A stretch of 64,000 nt of DNA, taken from assembly GCA_005222975.1 (NCBI GenBank), contig NJBI01000009.1, positions 20,449-84,448 of the forward strand. The letters run 5' to 3'. Positions 14,355 to 49,754 of this stretch are shown in pieces. Source of the DNA: Promethearchaeota archaeon Loki_b31. GTDB lineage: Archaea > Asgardarchaeota > Lokiarchaeia > Sigyniarchaeales > SOKP01. Under the pieces are notes generated by a model. It saw only the letters and a program-made list of their open reading frames with translations. It was not told where the DNA came from and searched no databases. Both the position numbers and the translations under genes were made by a program. Every line of letters begins with the position of its first letter. Within the stretch, counting starts at the first letter, position 1.

Positions 14355-15640
14355 ATGGAGTTGATACAAAAAAACGTCAGATTTAGACCAAGTAAAAGGG
14401 ATCAACGCTCGACAGATAAAGCTCTTGCAAGAGAGCGGTATTAGCACGGCGGAAGCTTTAGCAATGTCCCCACATAACATCATATCGGAGATCGACGGGT
14501 TAGGCGATAAAACAGCCAAGAAACTGATTTGGAATGCGCGAAACGCGTTAGGTATGACTGAGTTCATAACTGCCGATGACATCGACGAGAACACCGAGTA
14601 CATTACCACTGGCTCTTCCGAATTAAACAGAATTTTAGGCGGCGGATTCCAAACCGGAAAACTTACCGAAGTGTACGGACCCTTTAAGTCCGGTAAAACC
14701 AATTTAGCTCATACGATCGCTGTAACCATCCAGCTTCCTAAAAAAAAAGGAGGTTTAGGTTCCACAGTAGCCTACATCGACACCGAAAATACTTTTGCTA
14801 AGGAAAAAATCAAAAGAATCGCCAAAAGGTTTGGACTGGATCCGAAGAAGGTTCTATCGCAAATTTATCACGCCAGGATTTATTCATCGGACCACCAATC
14901 GCAAATGATTCAAAAAGCTGAAACTTTATGCAAAACTCGAAATGTGCGTTTAATTGTAGTAGACAGTTTGATGGCGCTTTTGCGGGCCGAATATGTGGGT
15001 ATTGGCATGTTAGCTCGTCGACAAAGCTTTTTGAACAATATGATACACGCCCTTTCCCGGGTTGCAGAGACATACAATTGTGCTGTTCTTCTTACCAATC
15101 AAGTTTCGACTAAGATGATGGGAATGTTTTCAGGAAACGACGCAATTGGCGGAAATAGTGATAAGATATTTCATCAATCACTTCTAAATCGTAGCCCATG
15201 GCTGCCACTTTCGTGTGATGTTTAAAACTAAAGGTTTCTCTTCCAATAATTCGTTAAAGCGGAGAGCTATAATAGTGGATGCGCCAGACTTGCCACCTGA
15301 AGAAGCAGAGTTTTACATAACGAGTGTAGGAATTGCCGACACGGAAAAGGGAGAGGTTCCCGAAGCTCAAGGCTTAGATTTCGAAGTCGAGACATTGTAC
15401 GAAGAAGAGAGTAACGCCGAAGAGAGCGAAGTTTCCGATAATGGTAATGGTAACCATTCGCTCATTGATGTTAAAGGAATTGGAGCCGGCACCGCAAAGA
15501 ACTTAATAAAGGTCGGAGTAGGCTCTGTAAAAGAGTTGGTAAGTTCTGACCCCGAAAAAGTGGCTTCTAAAATTAACGGAGTCTCTTCTAAAATGGTCCT
15601 TGAATGGCAAACCAACGCAAAGACCTTGTTGAGCGTTTAA
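14355..15640 (+). CDS. radA: RadA/Rad51-family recombinase with C-terminal HhH domain; interrupted by a 31-nt putative intron (15157-15187) and a 1-nt frameshift in A7 (14368-14374)
   Basis: N-terminal HhH (DLDQVKGINARQIKLL), TTGSSELNRILGGG, GPFKSGKT, YIDTENTF, VVDS, LTNQV; removing 15157-15187 joins AIGGN to IVAHGCHFRVMF. Confidence 0.85.
15157..15187 (+). other. putative BHB-type mRNA intron in radA (31 nt)
   Basis: central helix GGAA/UUCU, bulges AUA and AAA, inner stem GUGAU/AUCAC; canonical cuts restore frame and motif. Confidence 0.8.
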
Positions 15641-15765
15641 AAATTAATAATTATTACTATTTTTTTTTTCCTATCTACTTACTATTAGTGTTCTCTATTA
15701 TCAGTGGCTTAGTTCCAGTAACTTTAGTTCTTATTTTTATATCTTTACTTATTCGAAGAAAGAAG

Positions 15766-15993
15766 TTAAAGAACTTCGTCATAAAAATAGTACATGATTA
15801 CGGCTGAAAAAATCCCTGCGGCAATAAAAGACATCGCTGACCACTCGGATGTAAACAATACAACCCAGAAATTCTTTTGAACTTGAGAAAAAGTTGTATA
15901 TGCGCCCCAAATCGCTAAATTTATGGCACATGCTAAAAGAAATGCAATTACCATCCAGATAGCAAAAATTATTATTACTTTTATAATCCACAT
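15766..15993 (-). CDS. small membrane protein
   Basis: 75 aa, two hydrophobic segments. Confidence 0.45.
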   Translation of the reverse strand: MWIIKVIIIFAIWMVIAFLLACAINLAIWGAYTTFSQVQKNFWVVLFTSEWSAMSFIAAGIFSAVIMYYFYDEVL

Positions 15994-16111
15994 CTTTTAT
16001 GTAAAATGCTTATTTTTATCATAGTTAACGCAGATTATCTATTTATATGTATATGGAACGATTTTTTACAAAAAATGAAGCAATTATTAAATTAAGATTT
16101 TAGTAAAAAAG

Positions 16112-17143
16112 TTAATTGGTCCGCAAACTGACAGAGTTCTTTTTCCTGCGAACGCTTCCTATAACGATCAAAGCTCCAACTACGAGTCCCGCGCTGAGGA
16201 TAAACCCGAGAGTCCATTCTATCGGCACATAAAAGTAGCCTTGAATAGTTCCGTTGGTTGGTTCGGGGTCTGGCTCGGTTCCGTTTATACCGGTGCTTAT
16301 AGAATAGTCTTCAGCTATCGCGTAAGCTATGTTTACCACGTCGACCTTGCAATAGATTTTGATTTTAACAGTGTAAACTCCGCCAACCGCGGTCCCGAAG
16401 TTAAAGTGCAAGACCGTTCCAACGTTTCCAACGGTGTCGTTTCTGTAGATAATAAAGTTGATGTCGTCGGGGTCGGTTAGATCGTAATCAATGCCGACTT
16501 CTTGACTAATTGGCTCGCCTCCAATCGCAGAAACTCTTCCGAGATAAAATTTGTAAGACACATCGGTTTTAAGCATTACGTTGTGTTCAATAATCGATCC
16601 GGCGAGAAACTTGTTGACTTGATATAACTCTAGATTGGCGATGAATTCAGGAGACATGATGTCGTACAGGCATTTGTCTTCCTTATCAAAAGAGATTTTA
16701 ATGTATAAATTTAAGTTCAGCTCGGCAATAACCGAAAAAATAAGAGTGTAGTTTCCGTCAATCGCCGTCCCGAACGGTATTTCGAACCACTGGTCGCCGT
16801 GCGACACGTTGACTTCGGTTTTGAATATTTGATAAATGTCTGAGTCGGGATCTACCACCGTAACGTTGATCTCGCAATCGTGTGGCGTTACGATTTCTAC
16901 TAAGATGTAATAATTGAGCTCTTCGTACAAGTACAAGTCGTCGAACTGTTGAATATCGCTCGGAGCTAGAAATGTGAACACTTTGTCTACGAGCAATTCT
17001 TCGGAGCTCGCGTTAGGCGCGTCTATAAGTGCTAACTCGATATTTTCGTTGCCATTGAAGATAATTCGAAATTTATTAGTTAACAACCCAATAGTTAATC
17101 CTGATACGACCAAAAAAGCAAAAAGTATCGCTTTTGTATGCAA
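16112..17143 (-). CDS. membrane-anchored extracellular beta-sandwich protein
   Basis: N-terminal signal, two internal DPDxxxY/F-type beta-rich repeats, PEPDP linker, C-terminal TM and basic tail. Confidence 0.7.
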   Translation of the reverse strand: MHTKAILFAFLVVSGLTIGLLTNKFRIIFNGNENIELALIDAPNASSEELLVDKVFTFLAPSDIQQFDDLYLYEELNYYILVEIVTPHDCEINVTVVDPDSDIYQIFKTEVNVSHGDQWFEIPFGTAIDGNYTLIFSVIAELNLNLYIKISFDKEDKCLYDIMSPEFIANLELYQVNKFLAGSIIEHNVMLKTDVSYKFYLGRVSAIGGEPISQEVGIDYDLTDPDDINFIIYRNDTVGNVGTVLHFNFGTAVGGVYTVKIKIYCKVDVVNIAYAIAEDYSISTGINGTEPDPEPTNGTIQGYFYVPIEWTLGFILSAGLVVGALIVIGSVRRKKNSVSLRTN

Positions 17144-17144
17144 T

Positions 17145-17462
17145 TTAATAGCCGTACACCTCCAATTCTTTGAACTCCGAGATTAATTCCTTAACGATGG
17201 GACATCTGTCGTAATCGATGCAGGTAAAACACGGTTGGTCCGACCAGAAATACGCTTTTTGGTCCGGTCTTTCGACTATAAGTAGCGGGAACTTGCTTTT
17301 TGGACATTCCAGAGCCGAATTGTTTATTTTACCTCTTTTAGGTAGCGCGTACGAGAGTCCGCACACCTCGCACTTAACGAACCGTTTGTAATTGTTCGTC
17401 TTAAAAACGATTAGAGAGCACTCGCAACTAGGGCAAGCGCCTATTTCATCTAGTTTTTTCAA
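17145..17462 (-). CDS. multi-Zn-ribbon protein (topoisomerase C4-like)
   Basis: CPSC, CEVC, CPKS, CFTC...C clusters; operonic with the 16112 gene. Confidence 0.7.
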   Translation of the reverse strand: MKKLDEIGACPSCECSLIVFKTNNYKRFVKCEVCGLSYALPKRGKINNSALECPKSKFPLLIVERPDQKAYFWSDQPCFTCIDYDRCPIVKELISEFKELEVYGY

Positions 17463-17869
17463 CTGAAAAACTCCTTTAATTTAATTTTAAAGGGAAAAAT
17501 AGCTTGGGCTATTTAAAGAAAAAAAGGCTTTCCGACAAAAAATCAGAAATCAAGGAAAGAGGTTTCTTTTAAATGAAACGATGTTCCTTTTAAATTTTGA
17601 AACTCCTTTATTTTTTTTTTAGATTGGTTAGGGTTTTTAATTCTAACCTTTCTTTTTTATTACATTAATCAAGTCTAAAAGCATTCGCCAATTTCTCCAC
17701 TAAACAATTTTACTACTTTTAAAAATCCCTGTAAATTTTTAATAAATAATATTCTATACCTTTTTTTTTAAAAAACTAATATCTAATGCTTCTATTTTTA
17801 TATTTTAAATTATAAAAGATATTGTATAAGTAGAAACATTTAAAAAAAAGCCAAAAAAGAGGTAAGAAA

Positions 17870-18169
17870 ATGAATAAAATATTGCAATTTTTATTTGCAT
17901 TTTTCTTTTGTCTTTGTGTTATAGTTATATTTTTTATTGGTTGGAGTATAATAGATGAGTGGATAATATTTTTCGATTACGGTTGGAATTGGCACGAATA
18001 TACCGCCACTCCTATAATTTTATGGGATATTTTTTTCGATAATATATTGACAATACTTGTTATTACTACATGTATTACTTCAATTGGATTTTTTTTATAT
18101 CATTATTATTATCATTATAGAGAAAAAAAAATAAAAAGTGAATTATCGAAGCATCAAATAGCGATTTAA
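17870..18169 (+). CDS. small membrane protein
   Basis: 99 aa, 2 TM helices. Confidence 0.55.
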   Translation: MNKILQFLFAFFFCLCVIVIFFIGWSIIDEWIIFFDYGWNWHEYTATPIILWDIFFDNILTILVITTCITSIGFFLYHYYYHYREKKIKSELSKHQIAI

Positions 18170-18433
18170 ACAATTTTTCTTTTAGCACTTTAAAAGTACT
18201 TTTCTTTTCTTCAATGGCTAATATGTTCGAATTGCCAAACTTCTCTAAATCCTCTTTACCAAATTTTAAATTCTATTCAGCACGTTCGAAAGTGCCGCTA
18301 TAATTTTCTTTCCATTATATCGGGGGCACGGAGATCTGTCGTTTTTCAATTACCGATCGCATTCTTTAAAAGTAATAGTATCTTAATATTTAAACGATAT
18401 CTTTAAAAAAATTAAAGATAGTGGTGTAAATCA

Positions 18434-19636
18434 ATGAAGAAATCAAAAAAAAAATCAAAAAAAATCAAAAAAATAAATATCTTGCTGATTATTCTACTTA
18501 TTTCAATGTTTATCGTAATTCCAAATTTGTTAATAAGTATACAGAGAGAGATCGAAATTCCCATTGAAGAGAAGAATCCTAACGAGATTATTAATATACG
18601 ACCACCCCAAGAATCTTCTGTTTACTACGAAGATACGACAGGATCTGCACGTGGTGTTTATGTGAGCGGAGATTACGCCTATGTGGCAGATGATACTTCC
18701 GGTTTGGCGGTTATCGACATTTCCGATCCGACAAACCCGGGAACGCCCATCTACGAAAACACGATAGGATCTGCACGTGGCGTTTACGTGAGCGGAGATT
18801 ACGCCTATGTGGCAGATACTTTCTCGGGCTTGGCGGTCATCGACATTTCCGACCCGACAAACCCGGGAACGCCCGTCTACGAAGACACGACCGGAGAGGC
18901 ACATTGTGTTTACGTGAGCGGAGATTACGCCTATGTGGCGGATAGTACTTCTGGCTTGGGTGTCATCGACATTTCCGACCCGACAACCCCTGGAACGCCC
19001 GCCTACGCAGACACGACCAAATATGCATATGATATTTACGTGAGCGGAGATTACGCCTACTTGGCGGATCTTGAATCGGGCTTAGCAATCATCGATATTT
19101 CAGATCCGACAAACCCGGGAACGCCCGTCTACGAAGACACGAGCGGAGGTGCAATTGGCGTTTACGTGAGCGGAGATTACGCCTATGTGGCGGATGGTCC
19201 TTCCGGCTTGGCGGTCATTCAAGTCAGAAAGAGGGTTGCTATGGAAAACCCGATAATATCAAACGCCCCAAGCGATCTTACTGTGGAAGCGGGATATACC
19301 GGACAGAGCTTGTCGTGGACGGCAACTGATGCAAATCCAGATACTTATACGATCGAACTGAATGGAACTGGTATAGTAGTATCGTCTACACCTTGGGCTA
19401 ATAATGCGCCGGTCGTATATAATAACCCCGATGGCTTTTCTCCTGGTGTTTATGCATATACAATAACTTTTACAGACGAAGGTGGAAATTCTATCTCGAA
19501 CACAGTTACGGTAACTATTAAATCAATCCCTGAAGGAGGAATTCCATTTGGTAATTTCTTCTTGATATTCATTGGATTTAGCGTAATTTGCTTAATTTTT
19601 GCCAAAAAACGCCAAATTGTTCGCGAATCTAGATAA
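18434..19636 (+). CDS. LVIVD-repeat (beta-propeller-like) membrane-anchored surface protein
   Basis: five 42-aa repeats VYVSGDYAYVAD..SGLAVIDISDPTNP, Ig-like domain, N- and C-terminal TM segments. Confidence 0.9.
   Translation: MKKSKKKSKKIKKINILLIILLISMFIVIPNLLISIQREIEIPIEEKNPNEIINIRPPQESSVYYEDTTGSARGVYVSGDYAYVADDTSGLAVIDISDPTNPGTPIYENTIGSARGVYVSGDYAYVADTFSGLAVIDISDPTNPGTPVYEDTTGEAHCVYVSGDYAYVADSTSGLGVIDISDPTTPGTPAYADTTKYAYDIYVSGDYAYLADLESGLAIIDISDPTNPGTPVYEDTSGGAIGVYVSGDYAYVADGPSGLAVIQVRKRVAMENPIISNAPSDLTVEAGYTGQSLSWTATDANPDTYTIELNGTGIVVSSTPWANNAPVVYNNPDGFSPGVYAYTITFTDEGGNSISNTVTVTIKSIPEGGIPFGNFFLIFIGFSVICLIFAKKRQIVRESR
18626..19222 (+). repeat. intragenic 126-nt tandem repeat, about 4.7 copies
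   Basis: unit starts at 18626, 18752, 18878, 19004 and 19130. Confidence 0.9.
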
Positions 19637-19662
19637 TAAATCAAAAATCCAACAAATTAACG

Positions 19663-19700
19663 TTAACACCTTTTAGGTGTTAAGAATTTTTTTTTCTTTT
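19663..19700 (+). terminator. hairpin plus T-run terminator
   Basis: TTAACACCT-TTT-AGGTGTTAA followed by a poly-T tract just after the LVIVD gene. Confidence 0.6.
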
Positions 19701-20556
19701 ACTTAATTTGTAAAAATTTAGATTGATATCATTGTATCTATTAATTTTTAGTTTAGAGACTATCAATCTCTTTGTTGTTTGGGCGTTCCACCTTAAGGAA
19801 AACATTAAAATAAAAGCTCTTCCAAATATTAAATAATTTCCAGTTTAGAAAAAGAGGAATTATTAAAATTATTTCTATTATCGAAAAAAGAAAAACTGAT
19901 TATCAAATTTTTTAATTGATTACTGTTTTCTTACAGAGATCAAAAACGAAAAAGTGGGAAAACTTTCGGAAAATAAGATTTTCATAACTTTACGCTTAGG
20001 AATACAACCATAACATTTAAAAATAAACATATCCATTAATGATCTAATCAAGTTTTATTTGTATAGAAAAGTATTTAATTAAAAGTGATAGTAAAAATGA
20101 TTGATAGTACACCAGAATACTTGAAATTCTTTGGTGAAATTAAATTTGCAGAAGAAAAAAGTTTAAGCGCAAGCGATTTTGAAAGCTCTCTTAAGAGTTA
20201 TTTTTCGAAAGAGAAAAGACTTCCACAAGGGCGCTATAAATTTGCTGAACTTAACAATTCTAGCATTAAGGATTTCGAAGATTCCTTCTATAGTTATTTT
20301 GAATAAAGAATTAAAGATTTTTTTAAAATTCTCTTTATATATTAATTTTTATTTATATTCTCTTTTATTTCATCATTTGATACTCCTTATCAATAACCTT
20401 ATTTATTAATAGATAGCCTCTATTATCGTTATTTTCAGAATTAAACATAATTGTGTATAATAATTGTAATTTTAAATATAAGGCTTTAATTTATAATCAA
20501 AGAAAATCAATTGAAAATAAGGTATTTATTACAAGAAATTATTTTAGTCAAATATT

Positions 20557-21402
20557 ATGGAATTATTTAATATTGGCGAAGAGAAATTCGTCGAAACAAA
20601 CGGTATAAAACTCCATACTGTTATAAGCGGGGAAGGTGAGCCCTTAATCTTGCTTCACGGTTTTCCAGATTTTTGGTTTGGTTGGAAAAACGTTATTCTT
20701 GGGCTTAAAAAAGAATATAAGCTAATTATCCCTGATATGCGCGGCTATAACTTATCTGACAAACCTGAAGGCGTTAATAATTATAAAATGGATGTTTTAG
20801 TTGAGGATATTAAAGGATTAATTGAGGCTTTAAACTTAGGTGGCGTTTTTCTTGCAGGACACGATTGGGGCGGCGTAGTAGCGTGGGCATTCGCCGAAAA
20901 ATATCCTAAATTAGTACGAAAGTTAGCAATTTTAAATGCTCCTCACATGAAGATATTCCAAGAAAGGTTGCGCTCAGATAAAAAACAACAAAAAGCTAGT
21001 TTTTACATCTTTGAATTTCTTAAACCCGATGGAGAAAAATTTCTTTTTAAGGACGACTTTAAGTGGTTAAAATTCGCAGTTTTTGAAGGATTAATAAATA
21101 AAAAAGGTTTTACTGATTTTGACAAGAAAAAATATTTAGAAGCGTGGGCAAAACCGGGCGCAATTTTAGGAGGGGTGAATTATTACAGGGCCAACATAAG
21201 TTTTAGCAATTGGACAGGGAAAATAACAGTCCCCACTTTAGTCATCCATGGAATGAAAGATATAGCCGTGTTACCGTCTGTCTTGGATGGACTACCTAAT
21301 TATGTAGCTGACCTAAAAATAATCCGTGCTGAAAATTCTTCACATTGGGTTATGCACGACGAGCCCGAATTAATTATTTCATCATTTAAAGAATTCTTCT
21401 AA
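20557..21402 (+). CDS. alpha/beta hydrolase, epoxide hydrolase family
   Basis: LLHGFPD, PDMRGYN, GHDWGG nucleophile motif, SHWV. Confidence 0.9.
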   Translation: MELFNIGEEKFVETNGIKLHTVISGEGEPLILLHGFPDFWFGWKNVILGLKKEYKLIIPDMRGYNLSDKPEGVNNYKMDVLVEDIKGLIEALNLGGVFLAGHDWGGVVAWAFAEKYPKLVRKLAILNAPHMKIFQERLRSDKKQQKASFYIFEFLKPDGEKFLFKDDFKWLKFAVFEGLINKKGFTDFDKKKYLEAWAKPGAILGGVNYYRANISFSNWTGKITVPTLVIHGMKDIAVLPSVLDGLPNYVADLKIIRAENSSHWVMHDEPELIISSFKEFF

Positions 21403-21594
21403 TTTTTTGCTGCTTAATCTTCAAAAAAACTACTTAAAATTAATTTTGATTAAACTATTCTTTTGTAATATCTACTAATGTTTCAATATTTCGATTTGAT
21501 ATAACAAAAAACATAGATTTAAATGTTAACGTTTTTTGTTAAAAATATAACATAAAGGTTTAACTTTTATCCGAAATTATATTAATAGAAAAAC

Positions 21595-22053
21595 TTGATT
21601 TTTAATAACATGTCAGAAAAAGAAGCTTGGGCTTATCAACTTGATTGGTTGAATATTCTTCATCTTATAGGTTTAGATTCAATCTACCAAATCCCAGAAC
21701 ATAAGAGAGAAAAGGTAGTAAAGAAATTGACTAAACTATATGATACAGAATTGTTATTATCTTTTACACCTAGTGAATTGGACGAATTAGTAGCAAATGA
21801 GTTAAATATCCTTATGAAAAAGGAATTAATTTTGCACGACAGACAGAAAAAGAGAATTGAAAAGCAATTAAGAAGTCAAATGGGGCCTTTAAGAAAACGG
21901 ATAATCCCAATCGATATGAACGACTTAAAAGATTTAGATCCAAAAGATATAATGAAATTTTTCTCTAAAAAGCTAATGGGCAAAGAAGACGAAGACGATA
22001 ACGACGATGACAACGATACGAACGTAGACGATAAAACGGGATATTATATTTAA
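21595..22053 (+). CDS. hypothetical protein with acidic C-terminus
   Basis: 152 aa ORF; start may be the ATG at 21610. Confidence 0.65.
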   Translation: MIFNNMSEKEAWAYQLDWLNILHLIGLDSIYQIPEHKREKVVKKLTKLYDTELLLSFTPSELDELVANELNILMKKELILHDRQKKRIEKQLRSQMGPLRKRIIPIDMNDLKDLDPKDIMKFFSKKLMGKEDEDDNDDDNDTNVDDKTGYYI

Positions 22054-22082
22054 ACTAATTTTATTAATATTAAAAAAAGAAT

Positions 22083-23681
22083 TTAATAAATTTTAACCTT
22101 TAACCATTTTAATTCTACTTTTTTTGCCTTCCTGTAAAATAGGGCGAATGTTAGATAGACTATAGATGACCAAATAATCCAAGATAGGGCTTGATAAATA
22201 TCTATGTTTAAGAGATAATTAATAAATTCTTCTACGATGTAAAGTCCTGAATCGTTCGAATCTCCGGGAAACTTGAAAGTTTCAGAAAAAAATTGAATGG
22301 CGACAGCTTCATGTGTATTATTCTTTAAGTTTTTGAAAATATTTTCAATCGTTTTATTATTTGGATCATCTAATTTTAATTTGATAAAAGTGTTTAAGTC
22401 TTCATTAGTGTGAATGTCAGACCCCGCTATGCAAATTAAATTGTTATCCAAGCAAAATTGACGTATCTCTATATACTTGGTATAACCCCCACCATTGATG
22501 ATTTCAAAACCATCGACGCCCCAATCGCGCAATTCTTCAAGGTTATGTGGCGCTCCAGACCCGTCTTCATAATTATAATGGTTTACCGTTATAAAACCAC
22601 CGTTAGCTTTTACATAACTGATTAAATCAGAGGCATTCATCGCTTTAGGACCTCCTGGTGTATAAGATTCGAGAGGTACTAATTCTTCTTCTATCCCAAA
22701 GTAATTCATATGAATTTCTGGATCTGGTTCGTGATTTGTCCATTCTTCTGCTATCCAGACTGTAAAATCCAGTCCATTCTTCTCAACAAATTCTCGAGCT
22801 GCTAAAGCCCCTCTTATGTTATCGTGATCGGAAAATGCCGCTCCAGAAATCCCGTGTTCAATATACCATAAAACTCTCTCTTCGGGAGTTAGCCAACCGT
22901 CAGAAAAGGTCATGTGGACATGAAAGTCAAACAAAAACTCATCGTCGTCAAGAGGAGTAATTGGGATTATTTTATGCGTTGGAAATTGAATTGACAATAA
23001 AATAACATTAGAACCAAGTAATAGCAATAAAATTCCGGCAAAATAAACAAATTCTTTCTTCAAATCCGCAGTAATTTTTCTCTTTCCTTTTTCTATTTTA
23101 GCAGCAAAATTAAATTTAAGCCTTGGATGGAATAATTTTAAAAGAGAATGCCCAGCTTTAATTGAAATTAATATAACACCAAATTGTATTCCAATTTGAA
23201 CTGGGACCATAAAGTATCTATTAACAAAGAAAAATCCTTGAATTAAGTATCCTACTAGTATTATTAATAAAATTGCTACAAGTGTTATAGAAAAGACTTT
23301 AAACGAAAAATAAATGAAATCTGTTAACAAATGTTTTAAATGATTGTATTTACTTGAGTTTAATTTGCCCGATTTTCTTAAGAACACATAAATAACGCGT
23401 AGAATAGGGTATATTATCAAATACAGGAAAAGCCAAGTGAATCGGTATTCTAAAATAAAAGCAATTGTTGCAAAGGGTTCAAAAATGTACCTTAAAAACG
23501 GCAAAAAGCTAAAATAATCAGAAGAAACATCTCTTTGTCCAAGAGGTCCAAGAGCATCCCAAAAAACTACTTCCCTACGACTAAATATTGCCAACAAAAC
23601 TAAAATAATTATCCAAATTGAAAAGAATAGAGTTCCTATTGAAAATATTTTGTTTTTATAAAATAGAGTCTTTAAACGCAT
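22083..23681 (-). CDS. membrane protein with PHP-family phosphoesterase domain
   Basis: DFHVH..FSDG, SDHD, NHY and GSDIH motifs; N-terminal TM helices. Confidence 0.85.
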   Translation of the reverse strand: MRLKTLFYKNKIFSIGTLFFSIWIIILVLLAIFSRREVVFWDALGPLGQRDVSSDYFSFLPFLRYIFEPFATIAFILEYRFTWLFLYLIIYPILRVIYVFLRKSGKLNSSKYNHLKHLLTDFIYFSFKVFSITLVAILLIILVGYLIQGFFFVNRYFMVPVQIGIQFGVILISIKAGHSLLKLFHPRLKFNFAAKIEKGKRKITADLKKEFVYFAGILLLLLGSNVILLSIQFPTHKIIPITPLDDDEFLFDFHVHMTFSDGWLTPEERVLWYIEHGISGAAFSDHDNIRGALAAREFVEKNGLDFTVWIAEEWTNHEPDPEIHMNYFGIEEELVPLESYTPGGPKAMNASDLISYVKANGGFITVNHYNYEDGSGAPHNLEELRDWGVDGFEIINGGGYTKYIEIRQFCLDNNLICIAGSDIHTNEDLNTFIKLKLDDPNNKTIENIFKNLKNNTHEAVAIQFFSETFKFPGDSNDSGLYIVEEFINYLLNIDIYQALSWIIWSSIVYLTFALFYRKAKKVELKWLKVKIY

Positions 23682-23778
23682 AATTATAAATCTGCTTTCA
23701 TCCTTTAAAATATTTTTAATTAATTTAATAGCTCTTCAAATTTTCTTTGATAAAGGAATTATTCCATAAAAAATAATT

Positions 23779-24972: not shown

Positions 24973-25071
24973 TTAAAAGACTTTATTTTACAATAAGAAT
25001 AAAGTGTCAATAAAAACATATAAACCAAAAAGGGCTATAAAAATAGTAAAAAAAAGAGGTATAAGTTTATT

Positions 25072-26331: not shown

Positions 26332-26431
26332 AATAATAAACCTATCGTCAAATTGAATAATTTATATGGCAAAATTATTAATCTTTTTTGAATTATTCGA
26401 ATTATTTTATAGCGACAAATAATTAACTAGA

Positions 26432-27013: not shown

Positions 27014-27065
27014 AAATAAAATTTTTGAAATTCAATAAAATAAAAAATAAAAAACCAAAAAAATA
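26944..27065 (+). repeat. direct repeat copy 1 (3' end of nucleotidyltransferase gene and downstream)
   Basis: matches 31546-31670, including an identical CGACTTAAAAATCTAAGTGAAACTAA. Confidence 0.85.
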
Positions 27066-27081
27066 AGCTTAAATTAGGTAA

Positions 27082-37667: not shown

Positions 37668-37758
37668 AAATAAAATTTATTTTCTTTCAATAAAAAGTAA
37701 TTATTATTAAAAATCCCTTCTAACTAATAATAAGAATAATTTTAAATAGCTGAAGAAA

Positions 37759-38700: not shown

Positions 38701-38771
38701 AGAAAAACATTTAATTCAATAATTTTCATTTAATAATAAAATTATAATATTGAAACTGTAATGAAATTAAA

Positions 38772-40889: not shown

Positions 40890-41334
40890 GATGAAGATAG
40901 AACTTTTTACTATGCGATACTACCACGATATTATTAATCTATGGAAAAGATCGGGAATAGAAGTAAGCTCATCAGACACCCAAGACGAGATAGCTAAGAT
41001 ACTAAAGCGAAATCCCGATCTATTTCTAATCGGTAAGGAAGGTGAAAATGTTGTAGCAGTAGGAATAGGTGCTTTTGATGGAAGAAGAGGTTATGTGCAT
41101 CATCTTGCTATAGATCCAGATTATCAAAAAAAAAAGTACGGCAAAATGATGATGGACGATTTAATAGAAAGATTTCGCAAAAAAAAAGTACACAAAGTTC
41201 ACTTATTTATCGAGAAACATAATGAAGAAGTAGTAGATTTTTATAAGAAATTAGGATGGGATATTAGAGACGATTTAATTATGATGAGCTTTGTCCCGGA
41301 TAAAAGTTTGTATAAAAGAGACGTTGAAATTTAA
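40882..41334 (+). CDS. GNAT acetyltransferase
   Basis: GRRGYVHHLAIDPDYQKKKYG, N..VVDFYKKLGW. Confidence 0.9.
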   Translation: MIKMKIELFTMRYYHDIINLWKRSGIEVSSSDTQDEIAKILKRNPDLFLIGKEGENVVAVGIGAFDGRRGYVHHLAIDPDYQKKKYGKMMMDDLIERFRKKKVHKVHLFIEKHNEEVVDFYKKLGWDIRDDLIMMSFVPDKSLYKRDVEI

Positions 41335-41441
41335 ATATCCTATTTTTAACTATCATCATACTTTTTTTTAGTTTATATTAAAATTTTATATATTATTGGA
41401 AGAATATAATCATACTTACAACTATTCAATTGTGATCAAAA

Positions 41442-43214
41442 ATGAGTGACGAAATTAACGAATATTGGATGCAAAATTGGCCTGAGGAAACCCCTAGACA
41501 TGTTGAGTATGATGACATTTCTTTAGGTCAAATGTTAAGAAACACAACAGAAACTTACCCCGAAAGTGAAGTTATTTACTTTGAAGGGTTTAGGATGAAA
41601 TATAAGGAATTAGATGTTTTCGTAGATCAGTTTGCTACAGCTCTATACTATATGGGAATAAAAAAAGGCGATGTTGTTCTTATAAATTTGCCAAATACAC
41701 CTCAATTTGTAATTGCTTACTTTGCTCTTGTAAGAATTGGGGCTATAGCTAACCCGATTATTCCATTAAATAGATTCTCAGAGATTGTACATCAAGCGAA
41801 CGACTCTAAAGGTAAAATGATGATTATTTTAGATGTTCTATATGAAGAGCATCTACACGGTAAGGATTTAAGTAAGATGCCTACTTTAAAGGACATCATT
41901 CTAACAGGTGTTGCAGAATATCTGCCAAAAATCAAGGCAAAATTAGGAACAGCTTTAGGTAAGGTTCCTAGAATGAAAAAGTGGCCCACTAAAGTTGGAG
42001 ATGTAAATTTTCATAAATTTCAAGATGTTTTACAAAATGGGCTTCCGATTAATTTACCGGATGTGAAAATAAATCCTAAAGAAGATGTTTCTACGCTAAT
42101 TTATACGGGTGGGACAACTGGTTTACCTAAAGGTTGTATGATGTCTCATTCGAATTTTGTTGTAAACGCTCAGCAAGGGAACACTTGGGTTCAAACCCAA
42201 TTGCCGGAGATACAAGATGTTATGGGTAAAGGGGGAATGTTTGTAGTTTTACCTTTAGCACACGAATTTGCATTATCAATAGCTATGAATATTGGCATTT
42301 CAAATGGTTATAAATTAATACTATTTATTAAGCCTCCAGAAAAGCTTTCAAAAATATTAGACCTTATTCAGAAAGAAGGAGCAACTTTTGGACCCGGCGT
42401 ACCCACATTATGGAATAAAATTAGCCAAGACCCTGACTCTAAAAAGTACAAAAATAAGCTTCCAACGCTTGTAGCCTGTTTGAGTGGGGCTGCTCCTCTT
42501 CCTTTAGAAGTTAAACAGGAATTTGAGGATTTAACGGGATCTTTAATAATCGAGGGCTTTGGTATGAGCGAGACGAGTCCTATTTTAACAGTAACACCCT
42601 TCCATAAATATAAAGAAAACACAGTTGGGTTTCCCGTTTCAGATACATTAATAAAAATTGTGGATGCTGAGGATGGTATCAAAATCCTACCTCAATGCCA
42701 AAACGAAAGCTGCGAAAATTGTGGCGTCGATGAGTCACAATATATTGGAGAAATTTGCGGTTCTGGGCCTCAAGTTTTTATGGGTTATTTAAATAGACCT
42801 GAAGCGACTGAATATGCGCTAAGAAAAGACTCTAAGGGAAGAACATGGTATTACACCGCCGATATCGGATGTATTGATAAGGATGGTTATTTACGCATCA
42901 AAGATCGAAAAAGAGATATGATCAAATACAAGGGACACTCAGTATTTCCAAGAGAAGTAGAGGATTTATTATACCAACTCGAATATATTAACGAAGTTGG
43001 CGTTATAGGCGTTCCAGATCCAGAAGTTGGAGAAAATATTAAAGCGTATATATCCTTAAAACCAGAATTTCAAGGTAAAGTTACTGAGGAAGATATTACG
43101 AAATGGGCTAAAGAAAATATTTCTGCTTTCAAATACCCTCGAATAATTGAAATCATACCAGAGTTGCCAAAATCCGTAGTGGGTAAAATTTTGAGAAGAG
43201 AACTTCGAGAATAA
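41442..43214 (+). CDS. long-chain fatty-acid-CoA ligase
   Basis: YTGGTTGLPKG, EGFGMSE, DRKRDMI, LPKSVVGKILRR. Confidence 0.92.
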   Translation: MSDEINEYWMQNWPEETPRHVEYDDISLGQMLRNTTETYPESEVIYFEGFRMKYKELDVFVDQFATALYYMGIKKGDVVLINLPNTPQFVIAYFALVRIGAIANPIIPLNRFSEIVHQANDSKGKMMIILDVLYEEHLHGKDLSKMPTLKDIILTGVAEYLPKIKAKLGTALGKVPRMKKWPTKVGDVNFHKFQDVLQNGLPINLPDVKINPKEDVSTLIYTGGTTGLPKGCMMSHSNFVVNAQQGNTWVQTQLPEIQDVMGKGGMFVVLPLAHEFALSIAMNIGISNGYKLILFIKPPEKLSKILDLIQKEGATFGPGVPTLWNKISQDPDSKKYKNKLPTLVACLSGAAPLPLEVKQEFEDLTGSLIIEGFGMSETSPILTVTPFHKYKENTVGFPVSDTLIKIVDAEDGIKILPQCQNESCENCGVDESQYIGEICGSGPQVFMGYLNRPEATEYALRKDSKGRTWYYTADIGCIDKDGYLRIKDRKRDMIKYKGHSVFPREVEDLLYQLEYINEVGVIGVPDPEVGENIKAYISLKPEFQGKVTEEDITKWAKENISAFKYPRIIEIIPELPKSVVGKILRRELRE

Positions 43215-43287
43215 TTAAAAAAACATATTTTATTCCTTTTTTTTTTGTTAATATTAAATAAAAAAAAATTATTATTGTAATAGACTT

Positions 43288-43545
43288 TTACTGGATATTG
43301 CGAAATGGAACTAATCTAATTGCTTTATTAGGACATCTATGGTAACATACAGAACAACCCCCACAATAAGATTCAGTTATAATTGTTATAGCTTTTCCCT
43401 CGTCGTTAAATTTTCTAATATTGAGTGGACAATATATTACGCAAGTTCCACATGATTTACACTTAGATAATTCTGTTATCGCTTTATACGATAATTTGGA
43501 TAATTCTCTGATTTTTTTTTGTAATTTAGGTAAGGCTGTTTTCAT
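43288..43545 (-). CDS. 2x[4Fe-4S] ferredoxin
   Basis: two CxxCxxCxxxCP motifs. Confidence 0.9.
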   Translation of the reverse strand: MKTALPKLQKKIRELSKLSYKAITELSKCKSCGTCVIYCPLNIRKFNDEGKAITIITESYCGGCSVCYHRCPNKAIRLVPFRNIQ

Positions 43546-43615
43546 TATTTAAAAAAATAAATTATTATTCAAAAAGAGTTTGAAAAAAAAAATTGTGGAT
43601 TTTTTCACGAATTTT

Positions 43616-44638
43616 TTAAGAGATATTAGCACATAATTTCTTTAATATTTTTTCTGCTCCGTTTGAAAAACTGGTAATGATATCCCCAACATCCATTATC
43701 GAGTCAATAAGACCACATGTTTGCCCCACTGGAATAGCTCCATTATCTACTTCTCCTTGAGTGTATACGATTTCGTAATGATGAAGATCTTCCATAAATC
43801 CATCCAGATCGTACGATAATTCTTGAGAAATTTTTTCTTCTTTTGTCATGAGCGCTCCATGTTCTAAGCAGTATTTATTTTTCAATAATCTTATTGGTCC
43901 AAACCCACCGGTAGTAAGCATTGTATCTCGAGCTGTCGCAGGTGGAATTAATGCTTTATAATTAGGATGGAATTCGCTTTCACTAGAAGCTATAAATCGT
44001 GTCCCCATAGCAACAGCATCAGCCCCCATAGCTAATCCCGCAGCTACCCCTTCTGGACTTGCAATACCCCCACAAGCAATTAATGGTTTTTCGGGGTATT
44101 TTTTGGCAACCTGTGTAACCAGAACTAATGTAGTAATCCCTTCATAACTTTGATGACCGCCCCCTTCCGTACCCGTAGCAACAACACCATCGCATCCTGC
44201 AGCATATACTTTATCAACTAGCCATAAAGCTGGAGCGACGTGATAGTGCATGATATGAGGTGCCTTTTGTTTTAATATCTTACTAGCATTTCGTGGACCT
44301 CCTGCACTTGTTAGCAAATAGATTAACTGTTCGCGAATTTTTGGATTTGTATTACTCAATTGAGCAATTTTTCTTAACATAATCTTATGATCCGTCTGAA
44401 TGCGAGCAGTTCTAATATTAACGCCGAATGGTTTATCTGTATGTTCAATTACATAATCTAACTGCTTCATCATATCTTTTATAGAATTTTTTCCTTGTAA
44501 AGTTGCATGACTTACAACTCCAAGTCCCCCCGCCTCAGAAACAGCGATAGATAATTCAGTCGTGTAGAATGGACCCATCGGAGCGCTAAATATTGGATAT
44601 TTTATCCCAAATGATTCTGTTATTTTAGTTTTAATCAT
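43616..44638 (-). CDS. nitronate monooxygenase / FabK-like flavoprotein (paralog of the 29237 gene)
   Basis: APMGPFYT, GTEGGGHQ, MGTRF; ATG at 44638. Confidence 0.9.
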   Translation of the reverse strand: MIKTKITESFGIKYPIFSAPMGPFYTTELSIAVSEAGGLGVVSHATLQGKNSIKDMMKQLDYVIEHTDKPFGVNIRTARIQTDHKIMLRKIAQLSNTNPKIREQLIYLLTSAGGPRNASKILKQKAPHIMHYHVAPALWLVDKVYAAGCDGVVATGTEGGGHQSYEGITTLVLVTQVAKKYPEKPLIACGGIASPEGVAAGLAMGADAVAMGTRFIASSESEFHPNYKALIPPATARDTMLTTGGFGPIRLLKNKYCLEHGALMTKEEKISQELSYDLDGFMEDLHHYEIVYTQGEVDNGAIPVGQTCGLIDSIMDVGDIITSFSNGAEKILKKLCANIS

Positions 44639-44768
44639 ATTTGATTTATTCCTATTTTTAAAATTATGATAGTTAATAATACTTTTTTGCAATTAAAAAA
44701 GATATTCTTCTTAAGTTTAAATAAAAAAAAGATGCTTGAATCTGAACATTAACAGGGGTTTATTAAAA

Positions 44769-45254
44769 CTATTTTTCTATGTAATCGGTTTTAGAAGCAA
44801 TGATATTTGTAATACTTCCATTGGGAGTTAAATCAGAGTATTCCACCATTACTTCCTCATTTGTATATTTTTCAATCATAGCTGCCATAACCATAGCCAT
44901 TGGACACACCCCTTTAGTACCTGCAACTGTATGAGCAGATCTTGCCATGAAACAATTATTCAAGGAAAAAACATACGAACCATCAGGTCTTTTCTTAAGA
45001 GAAGCGTTATCAACCAATAGTGAAGTTTTTAATAACTTTATAAACCTTTTTCCAAAATCTTCAATATTTTCTCCTTCTATTGGCTCAATACCCAATTTTT
45101 CAGTTGCTTCCATAGACTCTTTTATTGCGGGAAACATATAATCACGAAATCCAATTTTTCCTAAAGTTTCGTCAATGCCAGCTTGAAGAGTAAAAATCCC
45201 CACGTGAAATAAACCCGAGATAAATCCAAACTCCTTTGGCATCATTTTATCCAT
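44769..45254 (-). CDS. V4R/methanogen-output-domain-like protein
   Basis: NNCFMA..H....VCPMA motif; ~160 aa. Confidence 0.55.
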   Translation of the reverse strand: MDKMMPKEFGFISGLFHVGIFTLQAGIDETLGKIGFRDYMFPAIKESMEATEKLGIEPIEGENIEDFGKRFIKLLKTSLLVDNASLKKRPDGSYVFSLNNCFMARSAHTVAGTKGVCPMAMVMAAMIEKYTNEEVMVEYSDLTPNGSITNIIASKTDYIEK

Positions 45255-45303
45255 TAATTTACGCTTTAATCCTATTTTTTTTCACCTTTTATGAATTTCT
45301 TAA

Positions 45304-45621
45304 TTATACATTATTCCATACACTATTAAAGATTTCTTCAGTTTTTTCTATAATCATTTTATGTTCTATTACTTTTGTCATAGGAAATAAGACCATTATA
45401 TACTTATGTTCCCTTTTTGAGATTGAAATCAATTTTTTTTCTGAAGAAATTACAATGCTATTTACCTCACCAGCTTCAAATTCTTTTGAAAATTTTTTGA
45501 CTAAATTTATTAACATTCCTCCAATTGAGATTTGACGTGGCGAAGAAAATTTAGGAGGAACTTCGGAAAAAACAACTTTTTCTTGTATTTCATCAAATAC
45601 AATAATTCCTTCTACTTGCAC
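45304..45621 (-). CDS. roadblock/longin-like small domain protein
   Basis: clear paralog of the C-terminal half of the 46301-47116 protein. Confidence 0.65.
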   Translation of the reverse strand: MQVEGIIVFDEIQEKVVFSEVPPKFSSPRQISIGGMLINLVKKFSKEFEAGEVNSIVISSEKKLISISKREHKYIMVLFPMTKVIEHKMIIEKTEEIFNSVWNNV

Positions 45622-45724
45622 TTTATATTTTAATTCCTCCAGTTAATTTTAAATTAATTTAATAAATATTTATCGAAATATAATTTCTTTTCGTCAGCAT
45701 ATTTAAAATTTTGTTAAAAAAATC

Positions 45725-46282
45725 TTATAAATTACCTTTATATTTTTCATATAATACTCTAATTATTTTTTGGAACGCTTCGGTCACCCCTTGATTTGTT
45801 TTCGCAGAAGTTCGAAAAACTCCAATAAAGTTCTTCTCTTTAATGAAGTTTTGAATATATGTATCATCTAACTTATCTTCATTAATTAAATCTACTTTAT
45901 TTGCAAAAATAATGATAGGAATATCACCACAACTCTGTTTAATGTCCTTATACCAATCAACAATGTGATTGAGACTTTCTTTACCAAGATCATTTTCTTC
46001 GAGGGAATAAACAATAATTGCAGCTTTACTTTCTTCATAAAAATCAGAACGTAAAAATTCAAACTCCTTTTGACCAGCAATATCCCAAAAATATAATTTA
46101 CATTCGTCTCCATTTATTTTCTCATCATAAAAAGAAAATTGGGCGCCTATAGTAGAGATATAATCTTCCTCAAAAGTACCATGAGTATACTTTTTAATTA
46201 GAGATGTTTTTCCAACTCCCCCATCTCCAATAACAGTTATTTTAAATACAAATTTTAAATGTGTATCATTCATTAGTTTCAA
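45725..46282 (-). CDS. Rab/Ras-like small GTPase
   Basis: GDGGVGKT, STIG, WDIAGQ, NKVD, TSAK; no C-terminal Cys. Confidence 0.95.
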   Translation of the reverse strand: MKLMNDTHLKFVFKITVIGDGGVGKTSLIKKYTHGTFEEDYISTIGAQFSFYDEKINGDECKLYFWDIAGQKEFEFLRSDFYEESKAAIIVYSLEENDLGKESLNHIVDWYKDIKQSCGDIPIIIFANKVDLINEDKLDDTYIQNFIKEKNFIGVFRTSAKTNQGVTEAFQKIIRVLYEKYKGNL

Positions 46283-46300
46283 TCAAATCCATTCGAATTT

Positions 46301-47116
46301 TTATTTTAATAATTCAATCTTTAACATTTTCAAAATGTCATCTAAAATTTCTTCAGTTTTTTCCACAATTATATTAAGTTCAATATTTTTTGTTTTGGAA
46401 AATAAAACAATTATGTAAATATAATCTCTTTTCGAGACACAAATCCACCGATTCTCTGAAGAGATTAATATACAATGTACATCTCCTCCTTGATATTCAT
46501 ATGATAATTTTTTAGCAAAATTTATTAACATTCCACTCATCGAAATTTGTTTTTTAGATGAATATTCTTCTGGAACTTTAGCAAAAAGAATTTTTTCTTG
46601 GTTTTCATCAAATAGAATTATTCCTTCGGATTGCACCTTATAACCAAATTCTTCTAATAAGCCTTCAATAAGCGGTTGTTCCATGAACTGTAATATGTAA
46701 TTGTTAAAATCTGAGAAGATGGTTATATTTCCATTACGAATTGGGAGGTGTTCTTGATATACTTCTAAAAATTTAGTTGATATTTTGTTTAGGATGTAAA
46801 TAATTACTTGATTTGGTAGATCGTCATAGCATTGTATACAAAAAGTAATTTTCTCGAAGTTATTATAAAATAATTTATGACCACTCATTATTAAGGATTT
46901 AACTATCGTACCTGGAATTAATTTCTCACCAAACTTCTTAATAGCTGTGAAAAATCCAGACACTATATTTTCATCCAAATTTTCAGGTTTTATACCACAG
47001 CTTGTCAAACAAACCCCTGCGTTATCATAAATATAAATTGATTCAACATAATTTTCTATTGCTTTTTTTTCCTCTAATAACTCGCCCTTGTCCGTACTCA
47101 TATTTCTATCACCCAT
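46301..47116 (-). CDS. tandem longin/roadblock-like domain protein
   Basis: IYIYDNAGVCL...SGFFTAIKKF...F..Y...F.DF longin-like pattern plus a second similar domain. Confidence 0.7.
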   Translation of the reverse strand: MGDRNMSTDKGELLEEKKAIENYVESIYIYDNAGVCLTSCGIKPENLDENIVSGFFTAIKKFGEKLIPGTIVKSLIMSGHKLFYNNFEKITFCIQCYDDLPNQVIIYILNKISTKFLEVYQEHLPIRNGNITIFSDFNNYILQFMEQPLIEGLLEEFGYKVQSEGIILFDENQEKILFAKVPEEYSSKKQISMSGMLINFAKKLSYEYQGGDVHCILISSENRWICVSKRDYIYIIVLFSKTKNIELNIIVEKTEEILDDILKMLKIELLK

Positions 47117-47120
47117 TTCT

Positions 47121-47363
47121 CTATTTTATTTTTTTATTTAAATTATCAATATGAGATTTTAATTTAGAATTTTCAGCTTGGCATTGGTTTAATTGTTCTT
47201 GTAATTTTTGGTTCTGTATAACAGTTTTATTCGCGTTTAGCAAGGTTTGATATAATTGATTCTTAGCCTTCTTTAAATCCTTTTCCAAAGTCTTTACATA
47301 CTGATCTTTATCAGATACATATGGCCATTCCTCTGCCATTGAATTTCCCTTCTGAATTTTCAT
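47121..47363 (-). CDS. small coiled-coil protein
   Basis: heptad-rich 80 aa ORF; likely start at MAEEW. Confidence 0.55.
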   Translation of the reverse strand: MKIQKGNSMAEEWPYVSDKDQYVKTLEKDLKKAKNQLYQTLLNANKTVIQNQKLQEQLNQCQAENSKLKSHIDNLNKKIK

Positions 47364-47430
47364 ATTCTTTTTTTTTTTTCATTTCTGTATTATCTTACTT
47401 TTAATACATAATTATTTTTATATATAATAT

Positions 47431-48117
47431 TTATTTTTGAGATACTTTTTCTGCTTTAGGTTGTCTAGTGAAATAGCCAATAGTGCCACAATTCTTACAT
47501 TTTTGAGAATTATCATCTAGAAAGACCATAGTTTTGTTGAAACAAGTAGGACAAATGAAGAGTACTTCTTCTATCTTCTCCTCAGGAATTTCTACAATCA
47601 TATCTATATTAGGAACTATTGGTGTTGTAATACAATACATACAAAAACACCTTTTTTTAGTAGCTTCAAGAACCTCATTTAATTTTTGTATAGGTGCGTC
47701 ACTCTCAACAAATATTTCAAGTTTATAGTTCTCAACAGCAGCAATTCCATCCTCAATCCCAAATCCAGTGGTTAAATCAATATCTGCAACTATTCTGATA
47801 TCAAGTTTTTTCAATTCAATTCCCGCCATTGCAGACCATTTAGCAAAAGCTGCAGAAAAGCATCCACAAAAACCAGCCATACAATAATGAACAGGATGTA
47901 CTGCAGTTCCTCCTCCACCAAGGATTATTGTTTCATCCGTTTGTACAGTAATTTCCCCAGCTCTTTCTGTTTTCAGTTTGGTTTCGAATTGTGGTCCATA
48001 TTCTACGTCTAATCTCCATCTACCTTTTACTTCTATGGTTTTTTTACATTTGGACCGGTCTTTTCTATATTCTTCTTGTACCTTTTTGAATCCGTCTAGA
48101 TCAATTCTATTAAGCAT
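47431..48117 (-). CDS. OsmC-family protein with C-terminal Zn ribbon
   Basis: DE...LGGGG..P...GFCGC, C-terminal CPTC...CKNC. Confidence 0.8.
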   Translation of the reverse strand: MLNRIDLDGFKKVQEEYRKDRSKCKKTIEVKGRWRLDVEYGPQFETKLKTERAGEITVQTDETIILGGGGTAVHPVHYCMAGFCGCFSAAFAKWSAMAGIELKKLDIRIVADIDLTTGFGIEDGIAAVENYKLEIFVESDAPIQKLNEVLEATKKRCFCMYCITTPIVPNIDMIVEIPEEKIEEVLFICPTCFNKTMVFLDDNSQKCKNCGTIGYFTRQPKAEKVSQK

Positions 48118-48406
48118 TAAGGAACTCCAATAAACTTATTACTAAGTTTAGTATTAAATTAGTTAAACTCTTATATAAACATATTTTCCTTTTTGTCATT
48201 TTATACAAGAAAGTACAATTAAATATACAAAATCTATTAACTTTTTTATTATTTTCGAACAATCTAATTTACAAAAATGTAAACAATAATAATAAATACA
48301 CAAATCTCTTTATCGGTTATTTGAGGAATTAAAATTTAATTAGGATTCTAACAATAAATTAATCATAATAAAAAATTCTAAATAAAATTATATCAAAGTG
48401 ATAAGA

Positions 48407-49754
48407 ATGAAAAAAGTAGCTATTATTGGAGTTGGAATTACTCCTTTTAAAGCAAGATATATGGATAAAACGCATTTCGAATTAGCGTATGACGCGACCA
48501 AGCTCGCTTTGGAAGACGCAAATAAAAATGGGGCTGAAATAACTCATAAAGATTTAGAATCAACGGTTTATGGAATATATAATGAACTTTTTGAACGCCA
48601 ATTCATGCCCGACATCTTTATAAACTCGTACATCGGAATGAACAACAAACCAGGAACTCGAATCGCGTCTGGGGGCGCAACTGGGGGGTATACTGTACGG
48701 ATGGCTTACTCTGAAGTTGCTTCAGGGCTTTCGGATCTGTGCCTCTGCTTAGGCGTAGAAAAGTGTAATGACTGTTACGACGAAAAAACGGGCACGACAA
48801 CACCAGAGGTTCTAAATGCAATCGCTTATTCTGCCGATATGACTTACGAAAAAATGTTGTAATATTCTACACATCTCGTAAATATCCTATGGGCATGATG
48901 GCGGCCAGCTCTTATGTAAGCATGGTTAATGCGCACTTTGAAGAATTCGGAAATCCCACCGAGGATCAAATGGCTTAACACTATAATATTTAGTTAAGTG
49001 GGCTAATGTCTCGGTTAAGAATCATGGAAACGCTTTGTTGAATCCAATTGCACAATCACCTATGAAGCTATCTCTTGATGACATCCTCTTCTCAAGGATA
49101 ATATGCTATCCTTTCAAGATGCTTGATTGCTGCCTTTATTCCGAAGCTTCGGCAGCTTTAATATTAGCAAGCGAAGAAAAGGTAAAGGAATTAAAGATTG
49201 AGAATCCAATTTGGATAACTGGTGTAGGTGCTGCGAATACAGATTGTTTTATCGGTAATCGGGAAGAAATAGGGCGGTTATATTCAAATGTTTACGCAGC
49301 AAAGGCAGCTTACAAGATGGCGGGATTGGACTATAATAAGATCAAACAACAAATCGATTTGGCAGAGCTTCACGATGCCTTCTCTGGACATTACTTGTCA
49401 TAAAGACAATTTGCCAGTCAAGAAGTCATCTCCTATGAAGAACTCGGTTTTGTATCTTTTGGAGAAGGAGGTCCATGGATTGAAAAAACATTTGAAAAAC
49501 CTGGAGAAGGCCCTTGGTTAGAGGGAGAACTCCCGTGTTGTCCTTCAGGTGGCTTGATAGGTTGTGGCCATGCTGTTGGTGCGACGGGAATTATGAGCAC
49601 TGGAGAGGCTACCCTTCAATTAAGAGGGGAGGCAGGTAAACATCAAGTACCAATTGCTAAAGGGAGAGCTATATCTCATTCTATTGGAGGTCCTGGTGCC
49701 GCCTATGCTGCGGTAATCGTAATGACAAACGAGGAGGGGTTGAAAAAACCATGA
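48407..49754 (+). CDS. SCP2-type thiolase-family protein encoded in 4 exons (48407-48850, 48883-48977, 49007-49389, 49420-49754); 418 aa after splicing
   Basis: KKVAIIGVG, GVEK, VSVKNH..ALLNP, ELHDAF, EELGF, SGGL..GH.VGATG; removing three BHB inserts (91 nt) gives one 1257-nt ORF. Confidence 0.88.
48851..48882 (+). other. putative BHB mRNA intron 1 of thiolase (32 nt)
   Basis: central helix UACG/CGUA, bulges AAA and AAU, inner stem AUGU/ACAU. Confidence 0.8.
48978..49006 (+). other. putative BHB mRNA intron 2 of thiolase (29 nt)
   Basis: central helix GGCU/GGCU (2 GU pairs), bulges UAA and AAU, inner stem CACU/AGUG. Confidence 0.75.
49390..49419 (+). other. putative BHB mRNA intron 3 of thiolase (30 nt, in-frame stop)
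   Basis: central helix CUGG/CCAG, bulges ACA and UCA, exon stem CUUCU/AGAAG, inner stem UUGUC/GACAA. Confidence 0.88.

Follow-up and report, generated by a model that had tools for sequence, protein, structure and literature searches.

Short bulge-helix-bulge inserts in conserved genes of a Lokiarchaeia genome are probable mRNA introns removed by the tRNA splicing machinery

Four short inserts interrupt two conserved genes, a radA paralogue and a gene for a thiolase-fold protein, in a 64,000-nt stretch of Promethearchaeota archaeon Loki_b31 (assembly GCA_005222975.1, contig NJBI01000009.1, positions 20,449 to 84,448; here the window), which belongs to contig C16 of the 3.5-Mb draft genome G000. 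From the sequence evidence assembled below, these inserts are very probably bulge-helix-bulge (BHB) introns of messenger RNA (mRNA), spliced by the endonuclease EndA and the ligase RtcB. This reading is favored because the inserts are precisely absent from orthologs, the exons are under purifying selection, the paired positions covary, the 3-4-3 geometry is confined to the sense strand, a single-copy essential gene is interrupted and the host EndA is of a suitable type. The initial annotation had proposed such splicing, including that of multi-intron messages, for an Asgard host, and the indirect tests reported here support it. The nearest named relatives are Promethearchaeia/Promethearchaeota (Lokiarchaeia) metagenome-assembled genomes (MAGs), with a RadA identity of 95-97%.

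All four inserts were recovered at the positions proposed in the initial annotation, with lengths of 31, 32, 29 and 30 nt. The inserts and the exons that they separate are as follows:

14374..15156, + strand: radA paralogue exon 1, matching positions 22-269 of the NCBIfam RadA model NF003301; start inferred to be the ACG, the first TTG coming at 14425
15151..15188, + strand: BHB motif of the radA insert, with central helix 15151-15154 paired with 15182-15185, bulges 15155-15157 and 15186-15188, and an inner 5-bp stem
15157..15187, + strand: predicted radA intron of 31 nt, which shifts the frame; found at 8 of the 80 named loci compared, with 66 free of it
15188..15640, + strand: radA paralogue exon 2, NF003301 positions 270-315; end of the RecA core and C-terminal extension
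48407..48850, + strand: exon 1 of the thiolase-fold (Cys-less) gene, matching NCBIfam thiolase-domain families; homologs are named thiolase family protein
48851..48882, + strand: predicted thiolase intron 1 (32 nt, stop and frameshift), helix TACG/CGTA; also carried by metagenome contig L269
48883..48977, + strand: thiolase exon 2 (95 nt), in agreement with insert-less orthologs
48978..49006, + strand: predicted thiolase intron 2 (29 nt), helix GGCT/GGCT; common to G003, G004, G033 and three contigs
49007..49389, + strand: thiolase exon 3, NCBIfam match; dN/dS 0.03-0.09 in unsaturated pairs
49390..49419, + strand: predicted thiolase intron 3 of 30 nt, which keeps the frame but contains a stop; helix CTGG/CCAG; complete BHB including the outer helix
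49420..49754, + strand: thiolase exon 4, NCBIfam match; stop codon overlapping the ATG of the following gene

Each insert adopts the same architecture, in which a 4-bp helix joins the end of the exon to the end of the insert, a 3-nt bulge follows this helix on both strands, and an inner hairpin is enclosed. The central helix of the radA insert is GGAA/TTCT, and all four central pairs, together with the 3-nt bulges, are found at all four inserts as originally claimed. A cut on the 3' side of the second base in both bulges yields the four junction peptides listed in the initial annotation, and insert-less orthologs share these residues. At each site, two to five sliding placements of the boundaries give an identical protein, with four of four central pairs in the BHB register only. 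The outer exon-exon helix is complete (5/5 pairs) in thiolase insert 3 and has two or three of five pairs in the other three inserts. Splicing of thiolase intron 2 would convert a TAA into a Tyr codon (residue 180); at this position Tyr or Leu is found in the aligned insert-less orthologs, Met, His or Cys only rarely and Asn never. All four inserts begin with A, and the G+C content of the three for which it was computed is 25-33%, against 42-44% in their flanks; the fourth has 8 G+C among 29 bases by count. The ATATT motif noted earlier is present in three inserts; it does not hold as a signal, since relatives do not keep it. Shuffling the four inserts reproduces the geometry at only 0.6-2.9% per site, which speaks against the chance origin that the initial annotation had asked to have considered. 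Group I, group II and spliceosomal features were not found in the inserts, which at 29-33 nt are too short for a ribozyme core of hundreds of bases and have A...AA or A...TC borders and no GU-AG.

Removal of the inserts by script restores an uninterrupted RadA paralogue of 411 aa, counted from ACG 14374, and an uninterrupted thiolase-fold protein of 418 aa. The two RadA exons are contiguous on NF003301 (position 269, then 270), with neither gap nor overlap. In the NCBI annotation these genes are broken up, for example into thiolase pieces of 150 and 263 aa.

BHB geometry was also evaluated at sites whose boundaries had been set beforehand by protein alignment to insert-less homologs, with the motif unused. 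The 15 sites tested are frame-breaking inserts with high flank identity, excluding the double inserts spaced by ~18 nt in G023, G035 and G024. An inner stem together with all four central pairs occurs at 14 of these 15 sites, compared with none of 82 control indels (18-60 nt, in frame and free of stops). The same geometry is found at 0 of 15 sites on the antisense strand, and 5000 shuffles give a mean of 0.43 and a maximum of 4. Across a grid of bulge offsets, the count peaks at the EndA register with the canonical 2/2 cut (14), and the runner-up (9) lies on the same diagonal. Confinement of the motif to the sense strand points to RNA, rather than a DNA hairpin, as the substrate. A loose de novo BHB scan returned ~20,000 candidates without a length peak and was dropped as evidence, and stricter scans served for leads only.

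The exons on either side of the inserts are under purifying selection. The mean ratio of nonsynonymous to synonymous substitution rates (dN/dS) downstream of a shared insert is 0.008 for radA (three unsaturated pairs), 0.044 for thiolase exon 4 (45 carrier pairs) and 0.043 for the translation factor gene aIF2-gamma (33 carrier pairs), computed among genomes sharing an insert with dS up to saturation; the pairs are not independent, and the effect is large. Values so far below neutral run counter to the neutral exon evolution that the initial annotation had named as an argument against splicing. The inserts differ by 0-41% between carriers, and neighboring synonymous sites differ far more; because they change more slowly than synonymous sites, the inserts are themselves constrained. 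In a comparison of nine radA inserts, 98.8% of the cells are paired, against 33-52% in slid controls, with 2 of 500 shuffles as high. Four pairs in this insert show two-sided change, one of them in the exon-intron helix.

The distribution of the inserts among relatives is patchy, and most same-genus orthologs lack them precisely in the kind of alignment that the initial annotation had proposed. Among 20 same-genus radA loci that span the junction, the 31-nt insert occurs at the same base in 5 and is exactly absent in 15. On a tree of the exon-encoded RadA protein, the carriers need six changes, gains and losses counted together, at least four of which are forced by well-supported branches. For the thiolase, 19 of 30 loci are without inserts; each of the other 11 has between one and four, spread over about eight sites from codon 126 to codon 308. 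A short-motif scan for junction 3 with and without the insert found 12 metagenome contigs with exact flanks, all 12 carrying the insert. The aIF2-gamma, radA and uS11 matches examined in other families contain no inserts. The thiolase genes of G023, G035 and G024 (L037, L040, L057, ~1930-2030) have two inserts around a micro-exon of ~18 nt, the first apparently with only three of four central pairs. Contig C17 of G018 has BHB inserts of its own at two sites (30 and 33 nt), plus a doubtful one of 21 nt, where the G000 counterparts are intact; G018 has fewer inserts than G000.

In G000 as a whole, at least 13 insert sites are present in 11 genes, a census that is a lower bound, the reference G018 having been compared over 2.30 of ~3.8 Mb (60%). 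Inserts aligned to orthologs lie in radA and its copy on C63, the window thiolase (three), a second thiolase (C58), genes on C46 and C99, proteasome alpha (C67), aIF2-gamma (C32) and the ribosomal protein gene uS11 (C17). Three further cases were recognized by motif and conserved peptide alone, in a P-loop gene on C39, which we take from its motifs to be CobA-like, in an ATPase gene on C45, presumably MoxR-like on the same grounds, and at a site on C97. All inserts are 29-33 nt long, mostly with a 5-nt loop, and A comes first at 17 of 20 pooled sites. They do not form a sequence family, inserts at different sites being no more alike than shuffles; no donor sequence was found elsewhere in the genome, nor were copies of a miniature mobile element, each insert being single-copy except in the duplicated radA. 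The aIF2-gamma gene has one match in the genome, and inserts of 29 or 30 nt interrupt its P-loop in G000 as well as in nine relatives; because the insert length varies at this one site, the reading frame of the insert is irrelevant. In uS11 (L376, at the 3' end in G000 C17; L377 in G034), a loss of 31 nt is needed for the conserved C-terminal tail, which is kept as amino acids in both genomes with differing codons. With the query used, 16 of 36 same-genus genomes, some of them 98-100% complete, gave no uS11 match, and the missing matches may reflect assembly gaps, search misses or further interruptions.

The genome encodes two EndA genes and an intact RtcB gene (C84). EndA alpha (C13) has the Aeropyrum pernix EndA as its best match (3p1z_B, E 3e-34), keeps the catalytic Tyr, His and Lys, and carries a crenarchaeal-type, CSL-like loop that ends in a K-P-R triad. 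The second EndA (C79) is without the catalytic His, as expected of a beta subunit. Such a loop has been linked to a broad substrate range, and relaxed BHBs are known substrates of loop-bearing EndAs (PMC12397907). By its sequence, the host EndA would be fit for relaxed non-tRNA substrates. In the mechanism that we propose from archaeal biochemistry and the cbf5 precedent (PMC2738675), an (alpha-beta)2 EndA would cut each bulge on the 3' side of its second base, with no tRNA body required, the crenarchaeal-type loop allowing relaxed motifs to be tolerated; RtcB would then ligate the exons, and the intron would be freed, probably as a small circle. More tentatively, the introns may have been gained at many sites and lost precisely, and may persist as near-neutral passengers whose sole requirement is to stay cleavable.

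Other explanations account for parts of these data. An assembly or binning artefact might be suspected in a draft genome of 99 contigs with 6% contamination; its probability is nevertheless negligible, because these inserts, some as sequence variants, are also present in genomes that were assembled independently and in the 12 metagenome contigs, which also settles the doubt raised on this point in the initial annotation. Footprints of DNA hairpins or miniature mobile elements in inactivated genes would suit small AT-rich hairpins found in MAG-derived data, in a genome with radA and thiolase paralogues, but this explanation is largely refuted and scarcely credible: downstream dN/dS is 0.01-0.04 in carriers at near-saturated dS, the single-copy aIF2-gamma and uS11 are interrupted, and the inserts are single-copy and mutually unrelated, with the motif on the sense strand only. 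The aIF2-gamma gene, single-copy and essential, is broken in ten genomes and is therefore no pseudogene. Programmed translational bypassing, in which the ribosome would skip the inserts and the RNA stay uncut, is known from gene 60 of phage T4 and from the byps of Magnusiomyces mitochondria. Those elements resemble the present inserts in size, in their hairpin and in placing a stop or frameshift within conserved genes, and at thiolase insert 2 the take-off and landing codons even match (both GCT), the take-off codon being followed directly by a stop. Bypass elements need matched codons, however, and frame-keeping ones exist at only 1 of 15 sites, where a hop would give Asn against the Tyr or Leu of orthologs; many junctions fall within codons, and the exon-intron pairing, which hopping does not require, covaries. 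Bypassing is accordingly a very improbable explanation.

Excision from RNA by another nuclease or at other cut points (for example by two independent half-site cuts or with an accessory factor), in place of canonical symmetrical recognition by EndA, is also very improbable. It would accommodate the exceptions at uS11 and proteasome alpha detailed below, and the narrow length range and mostly 5-nt loops of unrelated sequences may indicate an additional size constraint. Against it, the offset grid has its maximum at the EndA cut (14/15 at 2/2), a relaxed-type EndA is present, and cbf5 introns are likewise often unconventional BHBs cut by a hetero-oligomeric EndA (PMC2738675). Several observations nonetheless weigh against splicing by EndA and RtcB as proposed. 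Three of the four window motifs are relaxed, because the outer helix is incomplete and the BHB conformer lies above the minimum-energy fold, by 0.7-2.7 kcal/mol over the four inserts. The proteasome-alpha insert forms only three of four central pairs. At uS11 the strict 4-bp registers remove 32 or 30 nt, and a 5-bp central helix is required for the usual cuts to release 31, which suggests two half-site cuts or a wider cut rule. No joined, insert-less junction 3 was seen among the 12 metagenome contigs, which are silent on splicing because they are apparently DNA assemblies. No full-length thiolase of this clade appears among the homologs listed. Finally, the relatives' genomes are related to each other, so that sites and sequence pairs are not fully independent.

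A more far-reaching version of EndA/RtcB splicing can be envisaged, in which self-renewing micro-introns are both generated by EndA and RtcB and spread by them from site to site or lineage to lineage, under a cut rule wider than the 4-bp motif, and in which a regulated gate couples the output of aIF2-gamma, uS11, proteasome alpha and RadA to the condition of the tRNA splicing apparatus. We consider this version unlikely, if conceivable; the gate would correspond, in an archaeon, to the regulated mRNA splicing of the IRE1 type. In animals, IRE1 and RtcB splice XBP1 mRNA, removing a short, frame-changing intron by a protein endonuclease followed by RtcB. IRE1 differs in being unrelated to EndA, in cutting stem-loops and in being regulated by a signal.

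The closest known system is the cbf5 intron of Desulfurococcales and Sulfolobales, for which pre-mRNA splicing is proven (Watanabe 2002; Yokobori 2009, PMC2738675). It is a short BHB-like intron, with sizes that include 16-39 bp, which interrupts a coding sequence where a conserved motif is encoded; it is excised by a hetero-oligomeric EndA, often has a relaxed motif and has been precisely lost in some lineages. The cbf5 intron is confined to one site in one gene and is old and mostly vertically inherited, whereas G000 has its many sites in 11 genes with rapid turnover within a genus, and up to three introns per mRNA (four in relatives) instead of one; cbf5 splicing is proven, whereas the G000 introns are predicted from DNA. 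They would thus work like cbf5 introns without being members of that group, as cbf5 of G000 is uninterrupted, including at the catalytic Asp codon site (model positions 5-319, no stops). In Haloferax volcanii, HVO_1309 has a BHB intron in its 5' untranslated region (Schwarz 2020, PMC7714728), likewise an mRNA cut by the tRNA splicing endonuclease, but a single case outside the coding sequence; that paper names cbf5 as the sole other mRNA example. Asgard archaea are known for non-canonical and multiple tRNA introns (PMC11291895; bioRxiv 10.64898/2026.10.13.758758), which share with the G000 inserts the host group, motif, enzyme, repeated gains and little sequence similarity between sites; they differ in concerning tRNA genes only, and the word "mRNA" is absent from the main text of bioRxiv 10.64898/2026.10.13.758758. 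In the searchable literature, with subscription papers outside its coverage, no account of BHB introns in Asgard mRNAs came up; cbf5 is the only coding-sequence case there, introns in other genes being only predicted.

The mechanism is known; what goes beyond the published cases is the scale, together with the multi-intron messages, the essential targets and the turnover. If the inserts are spliced, mRNA splicing by the tRNA machinery would extend well past a single gene and be routine for a dozen or more genes per genome in an Asgard lineage, with essential genes and messages carrying several introns among them. Split or truncated annotation of such genes distorts work on Asgard gene content, metabolism and phylogenomics. 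The many presence/absence sites among close relatives make archaeal intron gain and loss directly testable, and uS11 is a natural case in which to examine the choice of cut register by EndA. The bearing on the origin of eukaryotic introns suggested in the initial annotation finds no support, these being protein-cut BHB introns with a patchy distribution within one genus. BHB introns are unrelated to spliceosomal introns, whose chemistry differs, and the G000 introns do not explain them.

Further features of the two interrupted genes and their surroundings were noted. The radA paralogue has no ATG start; a conserved Shine-Dalgarno-like GGAG precedes its start codon (window 14357-14376), and the corresponding codon across relatives (L002-L021) is ACG, ATT, ATA, TTG or ATG, which suggests that ACG 14374 may be a tolerated near-cognate start. 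A frameshift at the radA start was rejected in favor of the near-cognate start after this comparison. The encoded protein, which contains an acidic linker and, at its C-terminus, an additional helix-hairpin-helix-like domain, was not found in many relatives with the query used and belongs to a cluster of TFB-like, RadB-like and RadA-paralogue genes at window 9336-15640. The second radA copy (C63, ~17900-18600, minus strand) is missing its first 30 or so codons and differs from the window copy by a dS of 0.6-0.8 and a dN of 0.02-0.04, with an identical 31-nt insert; it may represent contamination, an old duplicate or insert transfer. The thiolase-fold protein, encoded within the 48407-50625 region, has Gly at the position expected for the nucleophile Cys. 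A 421-aa thiolase considered as the full-length protein of the clade proved to come from a contig of 3.5 kb and to be a relative that lacks the inserts, with 90% identity. Two genes follow the thiolase:

49751..50251, + strand: DUF35/ChsH2-type partner gene, whose start overlaps the stop of the spliced thiolase; the corresponding neighbor in L380 matches Pfam zf-ChsH2 and OB_ChsH2_C (weak)
50254..50625, + strand: downstream gene in the thiolase context, translation only

Elsewhere in G000, long tRNA genes with inserts at non-canonical positions were observed on C18 (80052-80204), C14 (28329-28460) and C92 (593-711 and 28877-28988). ARAGORN reports 23 tRNAs only, so introns probably conceal many others. 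On C14, the repeats at ~64200-64800 and 76600-77600 have a period of 72-76 nt and are most likely clustered regularly interspaced short palindromic repeat (CRISPR) arrays.

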